A stretch of 55,035 bases of DNA from Minisyncoccota bacterium. Lineage in GTDB: Bacteria > Patescibacteriota > Minisyncoccia > Phycocordibacterales > UBA918. Within the stretch, counting starts at the first letter, position 1. Each line of letters opens with the position of its first letter. The notes under the pieces were generated by a model. The model did not search any database. It had not been told where the DNA came from and saw only the letters and a program-made list of their open reading frames with translations. This document shows positions 2,992 through 30,905 of the stretch, piece by piece. The DNA lies in the NCBI GenBank assembly GCA_041688155.1, contig JBDNIW010000013.1, positions 1-55,035 of the forward strand. Reading direction: 5' to 3'. Both the position numbers and the translations under genes were made by a program.

Positions 2992-4035
2992 ATGGAACCA
3001 GAACCACTTATTGCACCCGTAGCGGACGTACCTGAACTATCTACACCAGAACCAATCCCCAAGCGCCGTCGCTGGCTACGGTGGCTATGTTGGTTTCTGG
3101 GTGGCAAAGTGGTTGTACTAGCGCTGTTATTTATCAGTTTTTACCTGTTATACCAACCACCAGCTGATTTTCAACCTCAGACTATTACTATCGAGCCAGG
3201 CGAGAGTGTCTTCTCGATTGCTCAGCAACTCACCCAGCAACAAATCGTCCGGTCGGAACTCATCCTGTTTACTATATTGCGCTACTGGCAAGACCCCACC
3301 CAGATTAAAGCCGCGACCTATACGTTTGAAGAACCGCAAACAGCATTTGAGGTGGCAGAGCTACTTGTAGAGGGCGAGTTTGGTAATAACCTGACCACTC
3401 TGACGTTCATTGAGGGAATGCGAATCCAAGAGTTTGCCGTCCGTGCGAGTGCGAGTTTGCAGAACGTGACCGAGGCTGAGTTCCTGGAACTAACAGCTGG
3501 ACTGGAGGGTCAACTGTTTCCCGAAACATACTATGTGCCGGCTGACTTTACTACTGCTCAACTGATTGTATTGATGTTCGACACTCATGTCGATGTTTTA
3601 GCGGAATTACTCGCCAGTAGCACCACGAGTCTAACCACACCAGAGATACTCATCCTAGCATCGATTGTCGAGCGCGAAGCCAACACGCCGGAATCAAAAG
3701 CGTTGGTCGCGGGGATATTTCTCAACCGGATGGCTATCGGCATGCCCCTCCAGGCGGATGCGTCGATAGAATACGTCATCGACGCACCGCTCGGGGAGCT
3801 GGCACCAGGGCAGCTCGCCGCTGAGTTGCGTGAGCTCGATAGTCCCTACAACACTTACCGTAACCCAGGTTTGCCGCCAACCCCTATCGGGAACCCTGGT
3901 CGGATGGCGCTCGCGGCTGTGATCAACCCGACCCCGTCAGGGTATTTCTACTACATTACGGGGAACGATGGCGAGTTTTATTACGCTCGTACATATGATG
4001 AACACCTCGTTAATATTGAAAGACACCTGCGGTAA
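2992..4035 (+). CDS. mltG: endolytic murein transglycosylase MltG (YceG-like)
   Basis: N-terminal TM; LASIVEREA...GIFLNRM...LQADASIEY...SPYNTYRNPGLPPTPIGNPG motifs. Confidence 0.9.
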   Translation: MEPEPLIAPVADVPELSTPEPIPKRRRWLRWLCWFLGGKVVVLALLFISFYLLYQPPADFQPQTITIEPGESVFSIAQQLTQQQIVRSELILFTILRYWQDPTQIKAATYTFEEPQTAFEVAELLVEGEFGNNLTTLTFIEGMRIQEFAVRASASLQNVTEAEFLELTAGLEGQLFPETYYVPADFTTAQLIVLMFDTHVDVLAELLASSTTSLTTPEILILASIVEREANTPESKALVAGIFLNRMAIGMPLQADASIEYVIDAPLGELAPGQLAAELRELDSPYNTYRNPGLPPTPIGNPGRMALAAVINPTPSGYFYYITGNDGEFYYARTYDEHLVNIERHLR

Positions 4036-4051: not shown

Positions 4052-5116
4052 ATGGATACACCCAACCAAACAGTTTTTGTCGGCCTCTCTGGTGGGGTTG
4101 ATAGTTCGGTCGCAGCCGTGCGGCTGCTGGCTGCTGGCTACAACGTGGTCGGGGTGTTTATCAAAGTCTGGCACCCAGACTTTATGGTTTGTAATTGGGA
4201 ACAGGAGCGACTCGATGCGATGCGGGTGGCGGCGCATTTGGGAATTCCGTTTTTGACCTGTGATGCTGAGGCTGCCTACCGCGATGACGTGGCGCACTAT
4301 TTTATTCAAGAGTACCGGGCAGGTCGGACACCGAACCCTGACGTGATGTGCAACCAATACGTTAAGTTTGGACGGTTCTTGGATTTTGCTCTTGATAAGG
4401 GTGCTGATTTTATTGCCACCGGCCACTATGCACAGCGGCTAGCAGGGGGGCGGGGTGCCGAGCTGCACCGCGGGGTCGACGCAGGGAAAGACCAAACCTA
4501 TTTTCTCTGGACGCTCTCGCAAACACAACTCGACCGGACGTTGTTCCCCGTTGGCGATACTCCTAAAGAACAAATCAGGCGAGAGGCTGAAGCGGCTGGA
4601 ATTCCAGTTGCTCAAAAAAAAGATAGCCAGGGCATCTGCTTTCTCGGACACGTTGATATACCGGAATTCCTCGCACACTATATAGATCTCATACCCGGGC
4701 AAGTCAAGAACGTCGACGGAGTAGTAATTGGTGATCACAAAGGTTCACTGGTATATACCCTTGGGCAGCGTCACGGGTTTACTATCACCAGTCAGAACAT
4801 CAACCGCCAGCCTTATTTTGTGGTTGGCAAAAACGACAATACTAATGAACTAACGGTCGCGACTGAACTGTCCACCTTACCAAAGAGTGTAAATCTTAAA
4901 TTACATAATGTAGTAACGAGAACCACTCTCACCGCAGACGAACCAGTCGAATTACAAATCCGCTACCGCCAAACTCCAATCAGCGCCACCATAGTGCAGG
5001 TTTGGAACGACTCGATTACGCTCCGGCCAACCGTCACAATGGAACAACCCGCCGCTGGACAATCCTGTGTACTGTATCGCGGTTCATTGTGCCTGGGAGG
5101 TGGTATCATAGAGTAA
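4052..5116 (+). CDS. mnmA: tRNA 2-thiouridine(34) synthase MnmA
   Basis: VFVGLSGGVDSSVAA PP-loop, DQTYFL, ICFLG motifs; start moved to ATG 4052 because the longer ORF overlaps mltG. Confidence 0.9.
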   Translation: MDTPNQTVFVGLSGGVDSSVAAVRLLAAGYNVVGVFIKVWHPDFMVCNWEQERLDAMRVAAHLGIPFLTCDAEAAYRDDVAHYFIQEYRAGRTPNPDVMCNQYVKFGRFLDFALDKGADFIATGHYAQRLAGGRGAELHRGVDAGKDQTYFLWTLSQTQLDRTLFPVGDTPKEQIRREAEAAGIPVAQKKDSQGICFLGHVDIPEFLAHYIDLIPGQVKNVDGVVIGDHKGSLVYTLGQRHGFTITSQNINRQPYFVVGKNDNTNELTVATELSTLPKSVNLKLHNVVTRTTLTADEPVELQIRYRQTPISATIVQVWNDSITLRPTVTMEQPAAGQSCVLYRGSLCLGGGIIE

Positions 5117-16589: not shown

Positions 16590-17021
16590 ATGGGTAAGAA
16601 ACGAACAGTAAAAAAATCTGGTGGATCAGACGTAGCGGGAACCTCCCGAGCGTTAAATCGTATCCCTAAGCGAAAGCTTCCAAGTGGTACACTAAACATC
16701 CTCGCCACTTTTAACAACACACTACTCACGTTGTGTGATGCTAAAGGTAACGCCGTGATGTCAGCATCCTCTGGCGCGCTAGGATTCAAAGGTGCACGTA
16801 AGAGTACACCATTTGCAGCAGCTAAAGTCGGTGAGATCATCGGTGAAAAAGCCGGGCAGATGGGCATGAAAGACGCAGAAGTAGTTGTCCGCGGAGTTGG
16901 TGCCGGACGAGAGTCAGCCTTGCGTGCTTTCTCTGGTCAAGGTATCAGTATCAGCAAGATCACTGATAAAACTCCCGTACCATTTAATGGCCCGCGCCCT
17001 CCTAAGGCACGACGCGTATAA
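16590..17021 (+). CDS. rpsK: 30S ribosomal protein S11
   Basis: ATFNNTLLTL.D..GN....SSG..GFKGARKSTPFAA pattern; position in alpha operon. Confidence 0.95.
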   Translation: MGKKRTVKKSGGSDVAGTSRALNRIPKRKLPSGTLNILATFNNTLLTLCDAKGNAVMSASSGALGFKGARKSTPFAAAKVGEIIGEKAGQMGMKDAEVVVRGVGAGRESALRAFSGQGISISKITDKTPVPFNGPRPPKARRV

Positions 17022-19391: not shown

Positions 19392-19793
19392 ATGGCTATT
19401 GCAACCTACATCGAAGGCATCGGACGGCGAAAGACTGCGTCTGCTCGGGTGCGGCTTACGCCAGCTGACAAAACCACCGTAGTCGTCAACGACAAGGCAA
19501 TCGAAGCCTATTTCCCAGTTTTAGCGCACCAGAAAGACATCATGTCTGTCCTTGAGACAGCTGACGCTGGTATTGAGAACTACACCATCACCGCCAAGGT
19601 ACACGGTGGCGGTACGTCTTCACAAGCCGAAGCTATCCGACTCGGGATTGCTCGGTCACTAGTGAAGGAAAAGATAGAACGACGAGGAGTACTCAAGGCC
19701 CTTGGATTCCTCAAACGAGATCCACGGTCAGTAGAACGAAAGAAGCCGGGACTACGGAAGGCTCGAAAACGAGCAGCTTGGTCTAAACGGTAG
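19392..19793 (+). CDS. rpsI: 30S ribosomal protein S9
   Basis: GRRKTASARVRL...GGG.SSQAEAIRLGIARSL...RDPR..ERKKPG..KARK..WSKR. Confidence 0.95.
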   Translation: MAIATYIEGIGRRKTASARVRLTPADKTTVVVNDKAIEAYFPVLAHQKDIMSVLETADAGIENYTITAKVHGGGTSSQAEAIRLGIARSLVKEKIERRGVLKALGFLKRDPRSVERKKPGLRKARKRAAWSKR

Positions 19794-19811
19794 AAATCTA
19801 CCGTTTAGACC
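19780..19811 (+). other. 14-bp perfect hairpin spanning the rpsI stop codon and the 5' consensus of repeat unit A
   Basis: GGTCTAAACGGTAG-aaat-CTACCGTTTAGACC. Confidence 0.7.
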
Positions 19812-19923
19812 GGTCCTAGCGAGAGCTAGGAATCGTCGATGTTTACGAGACGATAGGAGGGAACAAATATTATTACGTTCTGGGTCGTCCAACAAAGCCA
19901 CCAATCTCTGGTGGTTTTTGTTT
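19798..19923 (+). ncRNA. structured repeat unit A (hairpin CCTAGC-GAGA-GCTAGG, hairpin ATCGTC..GACGAT, TAGGAGGGAA, terminator)
   Basis: First of 4 tandem paralogous units; ends with CCACCA-atctc-TGGTGG hairpin (19898-19914) plus T-run. Confidence 0.55.
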
Positions 19924-20039
19924 ACTCCGGTCCCGAAGGGATCGCCGATATGAAGCGAAGCGGAAGCAGGCGAAGGTGGGAACCGAGTATCAAACTATGC
20001 TGAAGAAAAAGAGAGTCACCCTGACTCTCTTTAGCGTTT
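19924..20039 (+). ncRNA. structured repeat unit B (divergent: TCCC-GAA-GGGA, TCGCC..GGCGA, AGGTGGGAA, terminator)
   Basis: Same architecture with different but still complementary stems; AGAGAGTCA-ccc-TGACTCTCT hairpin 20010-20030. Confidence 0.5.
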
Positions 20040-20157
20040 ACTCCAATCCTAGCGAGAGCTAGGAATCGTCGATGTTTACGAGACGATAGGAGGGAAGAAC
20101 GTCACATTGTGACAGGCGTCCATCGAAGCCACCAAACATTGGTGGCTTTCTCCGTTT
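20040..20157 (+). ncRNA. structured repeat unit C
   Basis: Near-identical core to unit A; AAGCCACCA-aacat-TGGTGGCTT hairpin 20126-20148 plus T-rich tail. Confidence 0.55.
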
Positions 20158-20313
20158 AGACCGGTCCTAGCGAGAGCTAGGAATCGCCGATGTTTACAAG
20201 GTGAATGCTGAAAGCAGAGAGGGTGCCCTGGGGTACGAGACGATAGAAGGGAAGAACGTCAGTCTAGTGACAGGCGTCCAGCAGAGCCACCATGTACGGT
20301 GGCTTTTGTTTTG
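20158..20313 (+). ncRNA. structured repeat unit D (with ~40-nt insertion in second hairpin)
   Basis: Same 5' core; insertion 20195-20233; AGCCACC-atgtac-GGTGGCT hairpin 20285-20304 plus TTTTGTTTTG. Confidence 0.55.
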
Positions 20314-20372
20314 TCTCACTGTAAAATTTGTATCCGCCGCTGGACATTTAACAGCTCACAAAACCACACTTC

Positions 20373-20401
20373 TTTACAGCAATCTCGTTTAGCTTTATAA
20401 T
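20373..20401 (+). promoter_or_regulatory. sigma-70-type promoter TTTACA-17 nt-TATAAT, 9 nt before grpE ATG
   Basis: Read directly. Confidence 0.55.
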
Positions 20402-20410
20402 GCATGTCGT

Positions 20411-21016
20411 ATGGTGAATAATGATAATGACAACAACGAAGAATACGAGGACATCACTGACGAACTGACAGATACGACTGAACCGGATATTGAAGACATT
20501 GAAGAAGCTGAAGCTGGAAAACTTAAAAAATTACGAGACAAATTAAAGACGGCCGATGAAGGCAAACGTTCGGCTCTCGAGGAGCTGGCTAGCGTGCGCG
20601 CTGACTTCCTTAATGCTCGTCGCAGACTAGAGGAAGACACCAAGCGCACCATCGAGCGCAAGACCATCAGACACATGGAAGCACTGCTACCCCTGGCCGA
20701 TAGCTTCCATATGGCAATGGCTAATAGGGAAGTATGGGAGAAAGCAGACCCCATCTGGCGTAAAGGCGTCGAAGGGATCAACGCGCAACTAATGCAGATC
20801 CTCCGCGATAACGGCGTGACAGCCGTCGACCCAACCGGAGAAGTGTTCGACCCCGCCAAGCACGAGGCCATCGGCACAACCCCCGTGTCAGAAAATCTGG
20901 TAGATACCGTAGTACTAGTTATGCAGCAAGGCTATGAGATGACCATTGGCAGCAAGACAGAATTGATCAGACCAGCCCGCGTAACTACCGGAACATTGCA
21001 AGAATCAGAAGACTAA
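20411..21016 (+). CDS. grpE: nucleotide exchange factor GrpE
   Basis: Acidic N-terminus, coiled coil, LLPLADSF..A, DPTGEVFDPAKHEAIG. Confidence 0.9.
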   Translation: MVNNDNDNNEEYEDITDELTDTTEPDIEDIEEAEAGKLKKLRDKLKTADEGKRSALEELASVRADFLNARRRLEEDTKRTIERKTIRHMEALLPLADSFHMAMANREVWEKADPIWRKGVEGINAQLMQILRDNGVTAVDPTGEVFDPAKHEAIGTTPVSENLVDTVVLVMQQGYEMTIGSKTELIRPARVTTGTLQESED

Positions 21017-29229: not shown

Positions 29230-30905
29230 TTTGCTACTATTTCGAACAACCTACGTACTTATTTTTTGGCAACGATGTACCAGGCTTGCTCTACTACTCA
29301 CACCTACCGGTGTCCCTCCTAGCTTTGTTAATAGGCTTCTTTGTTTTCTTTAGTGCTCCTCAGCAATTGCTCAACAGGCTACTATTTTATATAACAATAT
29401 GCTTTGCAATCTGGGCAGGTTTAAATCTTATCACTTGGACCAACATTAATAGTGACACATTGCTATTTTCATGGTCTATCCTAGGTATATTGCAAGGACT
29501 ATTATCAATACTATGCATTTACTTAGTTACGGTATTTTTAACAAAAAAAGATGTCGGATTACCCACAAAGTTGGCCTATTTGGTGCTACTAGTGCCAGTG
29601 TTAATATTTGCACCAAGTATCGCAAACCTAAGTGGTTTTGATGTAGCTGATTGTGACGCATTTAAGTACGAAGGTTTACCTTACGTAATTTACTACACAG
29701 GATTAGGATTGTTAGCAATTGTGTGGATTGTCATCCTCGCGATAAAGCACTACATTTTAGAAACCAACACCCAAAAAAGAGGGGAGATAGTTTTGATGAG
29801 TTCAGGAGTCTCATTATTTCTGTTCAGTTTCTTTTTTATTGTTTTTCTCGCCGCTTATTTAGCTGAACCGGGTATTTTGAATGATTCGTCACTTGAGCTT
29901 TATGGGATGTTTGGGATGCCTGTATTTATGTTGTTCATGGGTATTTTAATCGTCCAATCCAAAACTTTTAGGGTTACCGTAATTGCACCAACAGCTCTGG
30001 TAATAGCGCTGACAGCGCTGACAGCAGCACAGTTTACTTATGTTCAGACTACAACCGGGCAAATCTTAACTGGTATAACAGTTATTCTGGTAGTGATATC
30101 AGGACTCTTTCTCATTAGAAGTGTTCGCAAAGAAATTAAACAACGTGTACAACTTCAACTCCTAACCTCCCAGTTAGAGGAGGCAAATCTACGACTACAG
30201 GCCCTTGATAAACAAAAGTCAGAATTTGTTTCGATTGCATCTCACCAACTACGTAGTCCACTGACTGCTATGCGAGGATATGCTTCACTGCTGATGGAGA
30301 ATAATTTTGGCGATATTCCAACCAAAGCCCGGGAGCCCCTGGAACGGATCGAGACGTCAGCCCGGCAGATGGCGCTCGTCATCGAAGACTACCTCAACAT
30401 CTCACGGATAGAGTCTGGCAATATGAAATATGAAAAGGCGGACTTTAACCTGCGTGACGAGGTGGAACGTATTTGCGATGATATCCGGCCAGCAGCGCTC
30501 AAGCAAGGACTAGTGTTATTGTTCCGAACTAATCTGACCAGCACAGGAATTGTTAACGCTGACGTGGGTAAAACTGTACAAATTGCCCATAACCTGATTA
30601 ACAATGCTATCAAATACACTAAGAAAGGTACTATCACTGTACTGGTGCGTGATGACGTCAAAAGCAAGAAAATATTTTTAGCTGTGACTGACACTGGAAT
30701 AGGGCTGTCACAAGCCACAATCAACATTTTGTTCCAAAAATTCAGCCGCGCAGAAGACGCCAATACAAACAATTCGACGGGGACAGGTTTAGGACTGTTT
30801 GTGGCCCAAAAAATGGCAGGGGCCATGGGTGGTACGGTTTCCGCGCACTCTGAGGGTGAAGGGAAGGGATCACGATTTACCTTCACCCTCCCACTAGAAA
30901 TGTAG
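29226..30905 (+). CDS. sensor histidine kinase with multi-pass membrane N-terminal domain
   Basis: H-box SIASHQLRSPLTAMRGY, N-box HNLINNAIKYT, G1 DTGIGL, G2 GTGLGL. Confidence 0.85.
   Translation: MICYYFEQPTYLFFGNDVPGLLYYSHLPVSLLALLIGFFVFFSAPQQLLNRLLFYITICFAIWAGLNLITWTNINSDTLLFSWSILGILQGLLSILCIYLVTVFLTKKDVGLPTKLAYLVLLVPVLIFAPSIANLSGFDVADCDAFKYEGLPYVIYYTGLGLLAIVWIVILAIKHYILETNTQKRGEIVLMSSGVSLFLFSFFFIVFLAAYLAEPGILNDSSLELYGMFGMPVFMLFMGILIVQSKTFRVTVIAPTALVIALTALTAAQFTYVQTTTGQILTGITVILVVISGLFLIRSVRKEIKQRVQLQLLTSQLEEANLRLQALDKQKSEFVSIASHQLRSPLTAMRGYASLLMENNFGDIPTKAREPLERIETSARQMALVIEDYLNISRIESGNMKYEKADFNLRDEVERICDDIRPAALKQGLVLLFRTNLTSTGIVNADVGKTVQIAHNLINNAIKYTKKGTITVLVRDDVKSKKIFLAVTDTGIGLSQATINILFQKFSRAEDANTNNSTGTGLGLFVAQKMAGAMGGTVSAHSEGEGKGSRFTFTLPLEM

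Follow-up and report, generated by a model that had tools for sequence, protein, structure and literature searches.

A tandem array behind rpsI consists of copies of an undescribed, conserved and folded RNA module of operon ends

In the window, that is, the whole stretch of DNA analysed here (55,035 nucleotides), rpsI is the final gene of the ribosomal-protein operon rpsM-rpsK-rpsD-rpoA-rplQ-rplM-rpsI. The spacer between rpsI and grpE (20411-21016) holds an array of four paralogous units, each 116-156 nt long, and the array as a whole spans 19780-20316. The features of the locus are listed below.

19392 to 19793, plus strand: rpsI, ribosomal protein S9, taken from the list of open reading frames and from the Pfam annotation that the identical gene has on public contigs.
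19780 to 19811, plus strand: helix P1, the "stop-codon clamp", seen as a perfect inverted repeat (I2), in the fold and by covariation in 19 loci.
19798 to 19920, plus strand: unit A (covariance-model match of 77 bits; fold z -3.0; terminator scan), with its box at 19798-19811, the junction GGU, P2 at 19814-19820/19825-19831 with a GAGA loop, P3 at 19832-19837/19849-19854, the purine tract AGGAGGGAA at 19855-19863 followed by a variable hairpin, and a terminator at 19894-19918 plus U run.
19920 to 20036, plus strand: unit B, the diverged "B type" (22.6 bits, E about 1e-3; inverted repeat I9), with its box at 19920-19928, P2 at 19931-19934/19938-19941 with a GAA loop, P3 at 19942-19946/19969-19973, the tract AGGUGGGAA at 19974-19982, and a hairpin at 20008-20018/20022-20032 with an interrupted U tract.
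20031 to 20154, plus strand: unit C (78.9 bits; fold z -4.9), with its box at 20031-20044, P2 at 20047-20053/20058-20064, P3 at 20065-20070/20082-20087, the tract at 20088-20096, P4 at 20099-20103/20115-20119, and a hairpin at 20126-20135/20139-20148 with a weak U tract.
20149 to 20316, plus strand: unit D (56.7 bits; terminator scan; alignment), with its box at 20152-20162, P2 at 20165-20171/20176-20182, P3 at 20183-20188/20239-20244 (one C.A mismatch; loop enlarged by a 39-nt insertion), the tract AGAAGGGAA at 20245-20253, P4 at 20256-20260/20273-20277, a terminator at 20283-20306, and a trailing box-like remnant GTTTTGTCT at 20308-20316.
20373 to 20401, plus strand: the grpE promoter TTTACA-17-TATAAT (promoter scan, 11 of 12 matches), which is the downstream limit of the element.

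The preliminary description of this DNA had proposed four tandem paralogous RNA units between rpsI and grpE with a shared 5' box, and both points were confirmed. A single covariance model built from homologues recovered exactly four sites in the window, which are units A, B, C and D, and nothing else in the 55 kb matched the unit. The 5' box pattern had four exact matches in the 55 kb; when one mismatch was permitted, only one further, unrelated site appeared, with 0.18 matches expected by chance. The core of hairpin 1 occurred three times in the window against 0.01 expected. The start of the element, formerly placed at 19798, was moved to 19780, inside rpsI, because unit A's 5' box provides the 3' strand for a perfect hairpin whose 5' strand is the rpsI end. 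More than 40 loci from metagenomes and MAGs contained relatives; the hosts are Patescibacteria, probably Saccharibacteria. The description of the units as structured RNA, conserved in evolution and located in the 3' UTR of a ribosomal-protein operon, is supported.

P2 pairs over 7 bp around a GNRA tetraloop, and P3 has 6+3 bp with an internal loop between the two parts. Across 53 distinct homologues, 95.9% of the cells of these two hairpins were paired, compared with at most 49% in slid controls, and nine of the 16 pairs had changed on both sides; hairpins 1 and 2 stand as they were first drawn. Compensatory changes support three helices, P1, P2 and P3. The pairing of P2/P3 cells was 96.1% in internal units and 95.7% in first units, indicating that the core is maintained without P1. 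Among the stem cells there were 12 G.U pairs and no A.C pairs, together with seven C.A pairs that all fell at one position. The C.A mismatch in P3 of D-type units would read as G.U on the opposite strand, which counts against the reading favored below, whereas the G.U and A.C counts speak for it. P4 also changed together on its two strands (ACGUC/GGCGU versus AUGUA/UACAU), as judged by eye from the sequences rather than by a pair count. A mutual-information scan recovered only the known helices, and it cannot decide on pseudoknots of the purine tract since the tract is invariant.

Unit B had been described as diverged, with both stems rebuilt from different sequence, and the homologues agree: B-type units were conserved in at least nine loci, and the UCCC-GAA-GGGA of hairpin 1 has a compensatory variant, UGGC-GAA-GCCA, in L066. 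B-type units also contain GCGAAGC, a very stable DNA mini-hairpin motif. The insertion of roughly 40 nt noted in the hairpin-2 loop of unit D is kept in other strains, and D-type units occur in L002, L003 and L039 as well. Two further candidates were dropped. The conserved CGUCC motif ahead of the terminators was considered as a partner for the 3' strand of P3 and rejected, as CGUCC stays constant while P3 varies, and a DNA-level protein operator of the HrcA/CIRCE kind was rejected as the stems covary rather than keep their sequence.

The 5' strand of P1, GGUCUAAACGGUAG (19780-19793), is the end of the rpsI coding sequence, comprising the last four codons (W, S, K and R) and the UAG stop codon, and its 3' strand, CUACCGUUUAGACC (19798-19811), is the 5' box of unit A. 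The stem has 14 bp, a 4-nt loop and a stability of about -25 kcal/mol. Because this hairpin was overlooked, the box had been treated as an internal motif of every unit; the first box is instead a strand of P1 that covaries with the rpsI end. In the 19 loci compared, 95.9% of P1 was paired, 10 of the 14 pairs had changed on both sides, and none of 500 shuffles matched this. The helix tracked synonymous codon choice, as AGU/UCU/UCA, CGN and UAA/UAG were each mirrored in the box. Besides GGUCUAAACGGUAG/CUACCGUUUAGACC of the window, the ORF ends with matching boxes included GGAGUAAACGCUAA/UUAGCGUUUACUCC in L002, GGAGUAAACGAUAA, and ends in ...CGGUAA or ...CGGUAG, and in L021 the change of Lys AAA to AAG at the rpsI end was mirrored by a box change from GUUUAC to GCUUAC. 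Units inside an array have the box without the partner strand of P1; the box of unit C is the exact complement of the rpsI end of other strains, matching that of L002.

A helix with coding sequence as one of its strands is the most unusual property of the module. Synonymous choice in the universally conserved C-terminus of S9 (W-S-K-R-stop) tracks a non-coding partner, and the arrangement is rebuilt at other genes, which makes this a clear case of RNA structure constraining synonymous sites. A mutational process could also keep P1 perfectly paired without selection on RNA, one example being template-switch correction of quasi-palindromes in DNA; the near-constant geometry of 14 bp plus 4 nt argues for function, short of proving it.

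Near-identical unit bodies were also found after murF and two other ORFs, and there the box complements the end of that ORF. P1 reads GGAAGGAAAAGCCC-UAAU-GGGCUUUUCCUUCC after murF in L050 and has a compensatory pair change, GUCC/GGAC, in the murF locus L066. After an ORF of no known function in L051 it reads GGAUAAUGUUUGCC-UAAU-GGCAAACAUUAUCC, and L049 shows the same arrangement of ORF end and box after another ORF. The bodies at the murF locus were 93-95% identical to those at rpsI loci and their boxes were unrelated, which shows the body to be a portable module and P1 to be locus-specific. The number of copies ranged from 0 to 4 per strain, even among relatives with identical or near-identical S9, so that the element is dispensable or its dose is flexible. 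Strains with identical S9 had two, three or four units in differing order.

As to transcription signals, the claim that each unit has its own intrinsic terminator held in part. Units A (19894-19918) and D (20283-20306) passed the terminator scan; units B and C, in which strong GC hairpins precede U tracts that are interrupted, did not pass. The units after murF lack terminators of their own, which places the terminator outside the conserved core. In agreement with the earlier reading, the promoter scan showed no sigma-70-like site in or before any unit, and grpE has its own promoter at 20373-20401, which is kept in relatives both with and without units. The ATG of grpE (20411) lies 9 nt past the -10 box with no SD, giving a nearly leaderless mRNA, so that read-through RNA into grpE would probably be poorly translated. 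In L051, hsp20 similarly has a TATAAT just ahead of its ATG.

The purine tract AGGAGGGAA was invariant across all gene contexts, and in the full module the conserved tract reads A-U-A-G-G-A-G-G-G-A-A. It is complementary to the canonical anti-SD of the textbook 16S 3' end, CACCUCCU, which may not be the host's own; the AGGUGG of the B type fits this textbook anti-SD in a shifted register. The tract starts no conserved ORF, as frames, starts and lengths differ: the potential starts past it vary in codon, frame and length, with AUG-UAG in L040 and L064, ACG in most loci, and AUU or GUG elsewhere. Coding potential was dropped as an explanation of the units, since the overlapping ORFs (30 aa, 63 aa, and 50 aa on the minus strand) were not conserved, and the compensatory stem changes are a further argument against coding. 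The statement that the window genes otherwise lack SD sites was broadly right: an SD-like 4-mer lay upstream of 9 of 58 window ORFs, and in many ORFs the start lies 7-10 nt past a TANNNT box. Because the window genes are mostly SD-less and leaderless, a perfect AGGAGG is out of the ordinary, and it raises the question of how the anti-SD is used in such a genome. The tract had been called unpaired, which was not borne out by the thermodynamic fold of the whole 3' region, where the prediction has it mostly paired.

An SD-like sequence that starts no gene is also found in the STAB-SD of the Bacillus cryIIIA and aprE leaders (GAAAGGAGG there, AUAGGAGGGAA here). STAB-SD presumably recruits the 30S subunit by way of the anti-SD, which would protect the RNA. 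It lies in the 5' UTR and blocks 5'-to-3' decay of the downstream mRNA, whereas the present tract, between conserved hairpins, belongs to the 3' UTR behind the operon's last ORF and has no long RNA downstream that it could protect.

Patescibacteria are episymbionts with tiny genomes that lack many classical regulators, and to our knowledge almost nothing is known of RNA-based regulation in these (CPR) bacteria. The motif had not been recognised as a known riboswitch, and the search of Rfam 15 agreed with this: at the gathering score there were no matches in the entire window, with E values up to 10 the region 19700-20450 gave noise (the best match, BjrC68, had 16.9 bits against a cut-off of 39), and six related loci gave no relevant match. 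No tRNA or tmRNA was found in the window, and a literature search for an rpsI 3' element or a CPR RNA motif found no relevant description. The module therefore adds a covariation-backed RNA family absent from Rfam, with a covariance model and about 50 distinct examples. TIGR arrays, found in CPR bacteria and phages, are likewise tandem RNA-coding repeats in Patescibacteria; their units have 36 nt, with 8-12-nt repeats and 9-nt spacers, beside a Tas (Nop-domain) gene (PMC12045711). We dropped this candidate, as the units here have 116-156 nt and terminators, lie between rpsI and grpE, and have no adjoining tas gene.

We tentatively favor, at somewhat less than even chances, a reading of the array as a modular cis-acting RNA element of the operon 3' UTR that has been duplicated in tandem. 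It would be transcribed as the 3' UTR of the ribosomal-protein operon ending with rpsI and would mark the 3' end of that operon. A complete module comprises P1 (14 bp), a 3-nt joint GRU, P2, P3 and the purine tract, followed in rpsI arrays by a variable hairpin and an intrinsic terminator. Extra copies may have been made by unequal recombination between boxes, which would explain two, three or four units in varied order at identical S9. The active part would be the P2-P3-purine core, presumably a binding site for a conserved trans partner; this partner is most plausibly the anti-SD end of 16S rRNA on the 30S subunit, or else an RNA-binding protein. Through P1, the first module would be tied to the stop codon. 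The ribosome that terminates there would melt P1 and leave P2 and P3 folded, and an mRNA no longer translated would form P1 again. The outcome could be a defined, exonuclease-resistant end of the operon mRNA that depends on ribosome traffic, and the terminators would stop transcription ahead of the leaderless grpE promoter.

The stop-codon clamp may point to a mechanism for sensing translation termination where an operon ends. A bolder form of this idea, which we consider unlikely, is that the module represents a new operon-end riboregulator, in which a portable core (P2, P3 and the tract) capturing the 30S subunit or another conserved factor, in a bacterium whose messages are otherwise translated leaderless and SD-less, is combined with a locus-specific stop-codon clamp. 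As every terminating ribosome would have to open P1, the state of the clamp would report upstream translation. Loci would then exchange bodies while the clamp is rebuilt for each ORF end. The element might act on the stability of the mRNA 3' end, on the release of ribosomes behind the last cistron, or by titrating free subunits.

Another explanation, somewhat doubtful in our view, is that the units form a trans-acting family of "sibling" sRNAs, or a sponge, that originated from the 3' UTR. Termination at its own hairpin, with processing after P1 or the preceding terminator, would free each unit as a discrete RNA of about 115-155 nt, and its tract would pair with pyrimidine-rich targets or titrate the 30S subunit or a GGA-binding protein (CsrA), with more copies giving a higher dose. 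Sibling sRNAs are known to occur in tandem (LhrC1-4 in Listeria; Qrr). The array resembles these and the 3'-UTR sRNAs CpxQ and SroC in lying downstream of an ORF, in its terminators or terminator-like hairpins, in its tandem paralogous copies, and in a conserved tract that may be single-stranded and act as a seed. Consistent with such a family, each unit of the rpsI arrays ends in a terminator-like hairpin, P2 and P3 are intact in internal units without P1, the tract is the most conserved element outside the helices, and the copy number varies as it would for a dosage element. The LhrC and Qrr copies carry their own promoters, however, and none precedes any unit here; the murF units also lack the terminators that would release them. 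A covarying tie to the stop codon in four gene contexts would be needless for a purely trans-acting RNA, and we know of no 3'-UTR sRNA that pairs its 5' end with a stop-codon region through covarying synonymous sites. Possible trans targets of the tract inside the window were dropped, as only two 8-nt complements were present (one in the RPPK codons of rpsK) against about one expected, which is the chance level. Nor does titration of CsrA fit well: CsrB and RsmZ carry many GGA motifs in hairpin loops, whereas here GGA occupies the 3' strand of P2 and the tract that follows P3, and the loops are GNRA or variable.

It is quite unlikely that the units are a selfish or mobile DNA element of the REP or MITE type that sits beside gene 3'-end hairpins and spreads by recombination or transposition, with stems kept as single-stranded DNA hairpins for a recombinase and any RNA effects incidental. 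Like the REP/BIME elements of enterobacteria, which often occur in tandem clusters, the array is extragenic at a gene 3' end, clustered and variable in copy number between strains, with hairpins that come directly behind the stop codon where an operon ends. REPs protect the mRNA upstream of them from 3' exonucleases and interfere with terminating ribosomes when about 15 nt or less from the stop codon. Such effects on mRNA stability and terminating ribosomes were reportedly described by Newbury (1987) and by Liang and Deutscher (2015). Mobility would account for near-identical bodies with locus-specific flanks at different loci, for the fast turnover of copy number among strains with identical S9, and for box direct repeats that flank every body and leave a trailing remnant past the last unit (L050, L066, L041, L055, and 20308-20316 in the window). 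The spacer between rpsI and grpE is a cassette-gene hot spot, the B type has GCGAAGC mini-hairpins, and the one Y1 transposase gene seen (Y1_Tnp) lies 3.5 kb from the murF locus in L067. L067 itself, however, bears no unit. No Y1 transposase gene adjoins the array in the window. REPs are single palindromes of about 35 nt, mobilised by RAYT transposases and present in hundreds of copies; the module described here has 70-150 nt and three helices, one of them with a GNRA loop, plus the invariant purine tract, its first helix includes coding sequence, and it occupies one or few loci per genome, always in sense. The copy number is very low: the 55-kb window has a single locus, the related loci (282 kb in all) have one per contig, and each contig appeared only once in the metagenome scan. 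The orientation is always that of the upstream gene, with hairpin and U-run terminators following in the rpsI arrays, and the GNRA loops, tandem G.A pairs and invariant, non-palindromic tract indicate RNA. The motif pattern had no matches in viral contigs, and a phage origin was dropped on this ground. Should the module turn out to be a mobile repeat of the REP kind, CPR bacteria would gain their first described family of this type.

Very unlikely is a riboswitch-like or translation-sensing attenuator, in which the box would have two alternative partners, the ORF end (P1) or the tract and following sequence (P1'), so that P1' closes a three-way junction and a ligand or a ribosome at the stop codon sets termination or read-through into downstream genes, chaperones in several loci (grpE-dnaK in many, hsp20 in L051). 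RNAalifold proposed the box:tract pairing in the GAAC subtype and the B type, the tract at the murF loci (GGAGGGAGAA, GGAAGGAA) resembles the ORF end (GGAAGGAAAAG) and could pair with the box over 8-10 bp, and P1' would overlap P4 by 3 nt. Nevertheless, box:tract duplexes were no more stable than those with shuffled tracts, P1' showed neither cognate preference across contexts nor covariation, and it was poor for units A and D of the window, so we left this helix as unproven. Tandem riboswitches and terminator attenuators (glycine, TPP) are comparable in having domains of two or three helices, conserved junction residues, a terminator and a tandem layout; the array differs from them in its lack of an Rfam match or a supported alternative pairing, in its 0-4 copies among close strains, and in its place after an ORF and before a gene with its own promoter. 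The earlier suggestion of serial attenuators for grpE is also unlikely, because grpE has its own conserved promoter and a near-leaderless ATG, because the module also follows murF and other ORFs, and because the terminator hairpins are autonomous, with no antiterminator or other structure competing with them found. The units moreover stay behind rpsI where cassette genes displace grpE (L010, L021, L042, L045). The downstream genes have their own promoters and leaderless starts and differ between loci; besides the chaperone genes, the neighbours were cassette ORFs, an opposite-strand gene of the YbjN family, a gene of the Usg family, and an uncharacterised ORF of 524 aa.

As shown in the following list, the array of four tandem paralogous units (A-D) lies in a spacer of 617 nt between rpsI and grpE.

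19392-19793, rpsI (S9), last gene of the rpsM-rpsK-rpsD-rpoA-rplQ-rplM-rpsI operon
20373-20401, grpE promoter, TTTACA-17-TATAAT, from the promoter scan
20411-21016, grpE, downstream of the rpsI array, with dnaK next

The preliminary description had taken these for four real structured units, and the results agreed: the box pattern that opens each unit, GTTTASWCCRRTCC, had exactly 4 matches in 55 kb (one more, unrelated site with 1 mismatch allowed; 0.18 expected), the units could be aligned end to end, and a covariance model recovered all four. The hairpin-1 core occurred 3 times against 0.01 expected, single-sequence folds of A-D gave z-scores of -3.0, -3.0, -4.9 and -1.5, and the insertion of about 40 nt ascribed to unit D measured 39 nt. 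An intrinsic terminator had been claimed for every unit; the hairpins of A and D were accepted by the terminator scan, and in B and C strong GC hairpins are followed by interrupted U tracts. The promoter scan found no promoter-like site before any of the four units, as had been noticed, and no Rfam family matched the array, either with the gathering threshold or with E values up to 10; the preliminary description had likewise recognised no known riboswitch. Behind the last unit lies a box remnant (20308-20316), and arrays at three other loci (L041, L055 and L050) also end in a partial box; every unit body, meaning the unit without its box, is thus bordered by box-like direct repeats. The array end of L055 additionally carries a decayed further unit.

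A feature absent from the preliminary description is a helix, P1, formed by the ORF end and the box. The repeat finder showed positions 19780-19794 and 19797-19811 to be perfect inverted repeats of each other: the last rpsI codons, UGG UCU AAA CGG UAG, base-pair with the box of unit A. The fold has a stem of 14 bp, a loop of 4 nt and an energy of about -25 kcal/mol; this stem-loop geometry recurs in nearly all cases. In strains with a B-type unit first (the diverged kind named after unit B), rpsI ends in UGG AGU AAA CGC UAA and the first box is UUAGCGUUUACUCC, which is also the box of internal unit C in the window; compared with the window, three synonymous rpsI sites are different, and the box is altered to match. 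Matching boxes also accompany the rpsI ends ...CGA UAA, ...CGG UAA, ...CGG UAG and UCA AAA CGA UAA, and where the Lys codon AAA has become AAG, the box reads GCUUAC in place of GUUUAC. Among 19 distinct P1 sequences, one of them from a murF context, 95.9% of cells were paired compared with at most 53% for a slid partner strand, both sides had changed in 10 of 14 pairs, and 0 of 500 shuffles, a control that ignores sequence relatedness, reached the P1 values. Stronger evidence than the shuffles comes from the slid controls and from the variety of pair types. The Ser, Arg and stop-codon columns covary within rpsI loci alone. P1 is built from whichever ORF end adjoins the unit, and a purely mutational origin of the perfect helix, by correction of DNA quasi-palindromes, is possible.

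At a more distant locus (L013, S9 71% identical; 3390-3650), a terminator is enclosed between the rpsI end GUCCAAGC and its pairing partner GCUUGGAC. A different repeated element (GACRGSCGGAGC..., hairpin, CGAGCGAGCCCGGGC) is then present twice, the second time with a copy of the rpsI end (CCAAAGCGUUAA) in front, and this element was undetected by R1, the covariance model of the unit core. Pairing of the rpsI end with a box downstream of it may predate the unit family.

R1 was built from 14 diverse units and matched 67 units (53 distinct) in 44 sources; within the window it found nothing besides A-D, and the homologues elsewhere showed covarying P2 (hairpin 1) and P3 (hairpin 2). In these two hairpins 95.9% of cells were paired compared with at most 49% in slid controls, with both-side changes in 9 of 16 pairs, and they gave the top signals of a mutual-information scan, with no pseudoknot among its signals. 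P2 occurs as CCUAGC/GCUAGG, CCCAGC/GCUGGG, CCUGAC/GUCAGG, UCUGGAC/GUCCAGA and, with tandem G.A pairs, CCGACC/GGGAGG, all with GAGA or GUGA loops; P3 occurs as AUCGUC/GACGAU, AUUCUC/GAGAAU and AUCCUC/GAGGAU, and its inner 3-bp helix covaries too. The purine tract after P3 is an invariant AUAGGAGGGAA (B type, AGGUGGGAA; unit D of the window, AGAAGGGAA). Its complementarity to the canonical anti-SD is perfect, and the B-type variant is still complementary in a shifted register. In one subtype a further hairpin follows, P4 (ACGUC...GGCGU), with a compensatory AUGUA...UACAU in L062 and L064, judged by eye without a pair count. The reading of unit B as diverged with a rebuilt hairpin was confirmed: model scores for the B type are low, yet the type is conserved across at least 9 loci, and its short P2 has a compensatory variant, UGGC-GAA-GCCA, in L066. 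Internal and first units keep P2/P3 pairing equally (96.1% and 95.7%), indicating that the core is maintained without P1.

After the tract, an AUG stands at ideal spacing in some units (L040 ~1064-1076, L064 ~1340-1352, L062 ~5050-5075), with an immediate stop in L040 and L064 ('start-stop', AGGAGGGAAGA-AUG-UAG); most units have ACG in this position. Perfect 8-nt complements of the tract, CCCUCCUA, occur in sense RNA at 16998-17005 and 29315-29322 of the window, a count equal to chance expectation; one of them covers RPPK codons at the rpsK end, just before rpsD.

Relatives' loci were collected from GTDB genomes, from S9 homologues 83-91% identical, and by a degenerate motif scan of JGI metagenomes (27 loci). 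Three motif-scan loci sit after ORFs other than rpsI. The gene upstream in L048/L050 is murF, according to Pfam domains of its homologues, and P1 there reads GGAAGGAAAAGCCC-UAAU-GGGCUUUUCCUUCC; its loop contains the stop codon, and the tandem copies behind it number 2.2. L066 (MurF 89% identical) has a compensatory P1 change, GUCC/GGAC, accompanying a Pro-to-Ser change, and B-like units instead, and in more distantly related murF loci there is a plain terminator and no unit. L051 has GGAUAAUGUUUGCC-UAAU-GGCAAACAUUAUCC after an ORF without assigned identity, and in L049 P1 lies just past the stop codon of a 181-aa ORF with no Pfam match. The murF unit body of L050 is 93-95% identical to rpsI-locus bodies (L062, L064) and their boxes share nothing, which makes the body a portable module. 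The units of L051 (reverse strand of the stored locus, ~300-790 in unit orientation) are directly upstream of a leaderless hsp20 (Pfam HSP20, E 1e-11), so that chaperone neighbours occur in two independent contexts, hsp20 here and grpE-dnaK at rpsI loci; this may be coincidence, since rpsI and grpE are adjacent in unit-free strains too.

The number of units changes rapidly among relatives. An identical S9 protein was found on at least 24 public contigs with spacers that are not alike: one is the same as the window, one has two units, and several have four, reordered with the B type first. The best-named relative is a Candidatus Saccharibacteria MAG (S9 86% identical), and close relatives L011, L020, L024 and L026-L033 have zero units. 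Where cassette ORFs lie between rpsI and grpE (L010, L021, L042, L045), the units remain by rpsI. In all contexts P1 is only partly repeated in internal copies, which have its loop-proximal part and its 3' strand; this pattern fits unequal recombination between boxes and also duplication at insertion.

The element, found at operon ends, is an RNA-type structure that is conserved, oriented, modular, linked to the stop codon and duplicated in tandem, with terminators after units in rpsI arrays. We tentatively propose that it acts in cis as part of the operon 3' UTR. Because the P2-P3-tract core is conserved even in internal copies, we infer that it is the functional unit. The core would probably bind a conserved partner, for which the 30S subunit is the leading candidate because of the complementarity between tract and anti-SD, and an RNA-binding protein the alternative. 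P2 starts 21 nt past the stop codon; each terminating ribosome would have to melt P1, with P2 and P3 beyond its reach, and P1 would re-form on idle mRNA, where it could define a protected 3' end retaining the stop codon or serve as a readout of ribosome traffic.

Released sibling sRNAs or a sponge, a rather doubtful explanation, would suit the terminators and the conserved tract but not the absent promoters or the P1 clamp. A REP/MITE-like mobile element is improbable: portability, flanking direct repeats and turnover speak for it, while very low copy number, strict orientation and RNA-type features speak against it. A Y1 transposase gene (IS200/IS605-type, PF01797; L067 14832-15389) bears on this explanation but offers no link; it lies 3.5 kb downstream of a unit-free murF locus. 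A riboswitch-like or translation-sensing attenuator, in which the box would pair with either the ORF end or the tract, is very unlikely, as the box:tract pairing predicted by RNAalifold is not supported by energies, cognate preference or covariation, and genes downstream carry promoters of their own.

The grpE promoter noticed earlier was present as described, and window genes mostly lack SD sites, as had been stated, with an SD-like 4-mer upstream of only 9 of 58 ORFs. Many genes start 7-10 nt past a -10-like TANNNT box (e.g. 10895, 13225, 14419, 17032, 20411, 28203, 35250, 36501). From these sites, many window mRNAs are predicted to be leaderless, and the organism seems to depend for the most part on such mRNAs and on coupled re-initiation within operons. 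The grpE start is of the leaderless kind, and RNA reading through from rpsI would bear it as an internal, SD-less start; the suggested serial attenuators of grpE are therefore unlikely.

In its proposed working the element would come closest to REP elements or 3'-UTR stabilisers and sRNAs, plus a STAB-SD-like tract, but across these the defining features of copy number, promoters and position failed. It belongs to no Rfam family, no description of it was found in the literature, and we rate its broader kind as structured 3'-UTR or terminator-associated RNA elements. Identity as a TIGR array was rejected for the rpsI-grpE units. The clearly unusual feature of the element is a helix that is half coding sequence, follows synonymous codon choice by covariation and is formed anew at different genes.

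The rpsI-grpE spacer of relatives is variable, with 0-2 small cassette ORFs of 47-112 aa (L021 2700-3400, L023, L025, L026, L028, L042, L045), which have strong AAGGAG ribosome-binding sites, unlike core genes. A conserved stretch (...CGTTT..GATATCAGGGTTG...) and a promoter of its own precede each cassette ORF, a terminator comes after it, and some products resemble ribbon-helix-helix proteins. Upstream of the grpE promoter (L021 ~3290-3370; L023, L024, L034) there is also a conserved element of ~85 nt, CACAACGGGUGUUUGG-[covarying hairpin]-GCGAAAAGCCCGUC, absent from the window and without an Rfam match. The arms of the hairpin bear CIRCE-like half sites, GCACUC ... GAGUG, ~19-22 nt apart rather than 9; the element may be an HrcA operator of unusual form or else a structured RNA.
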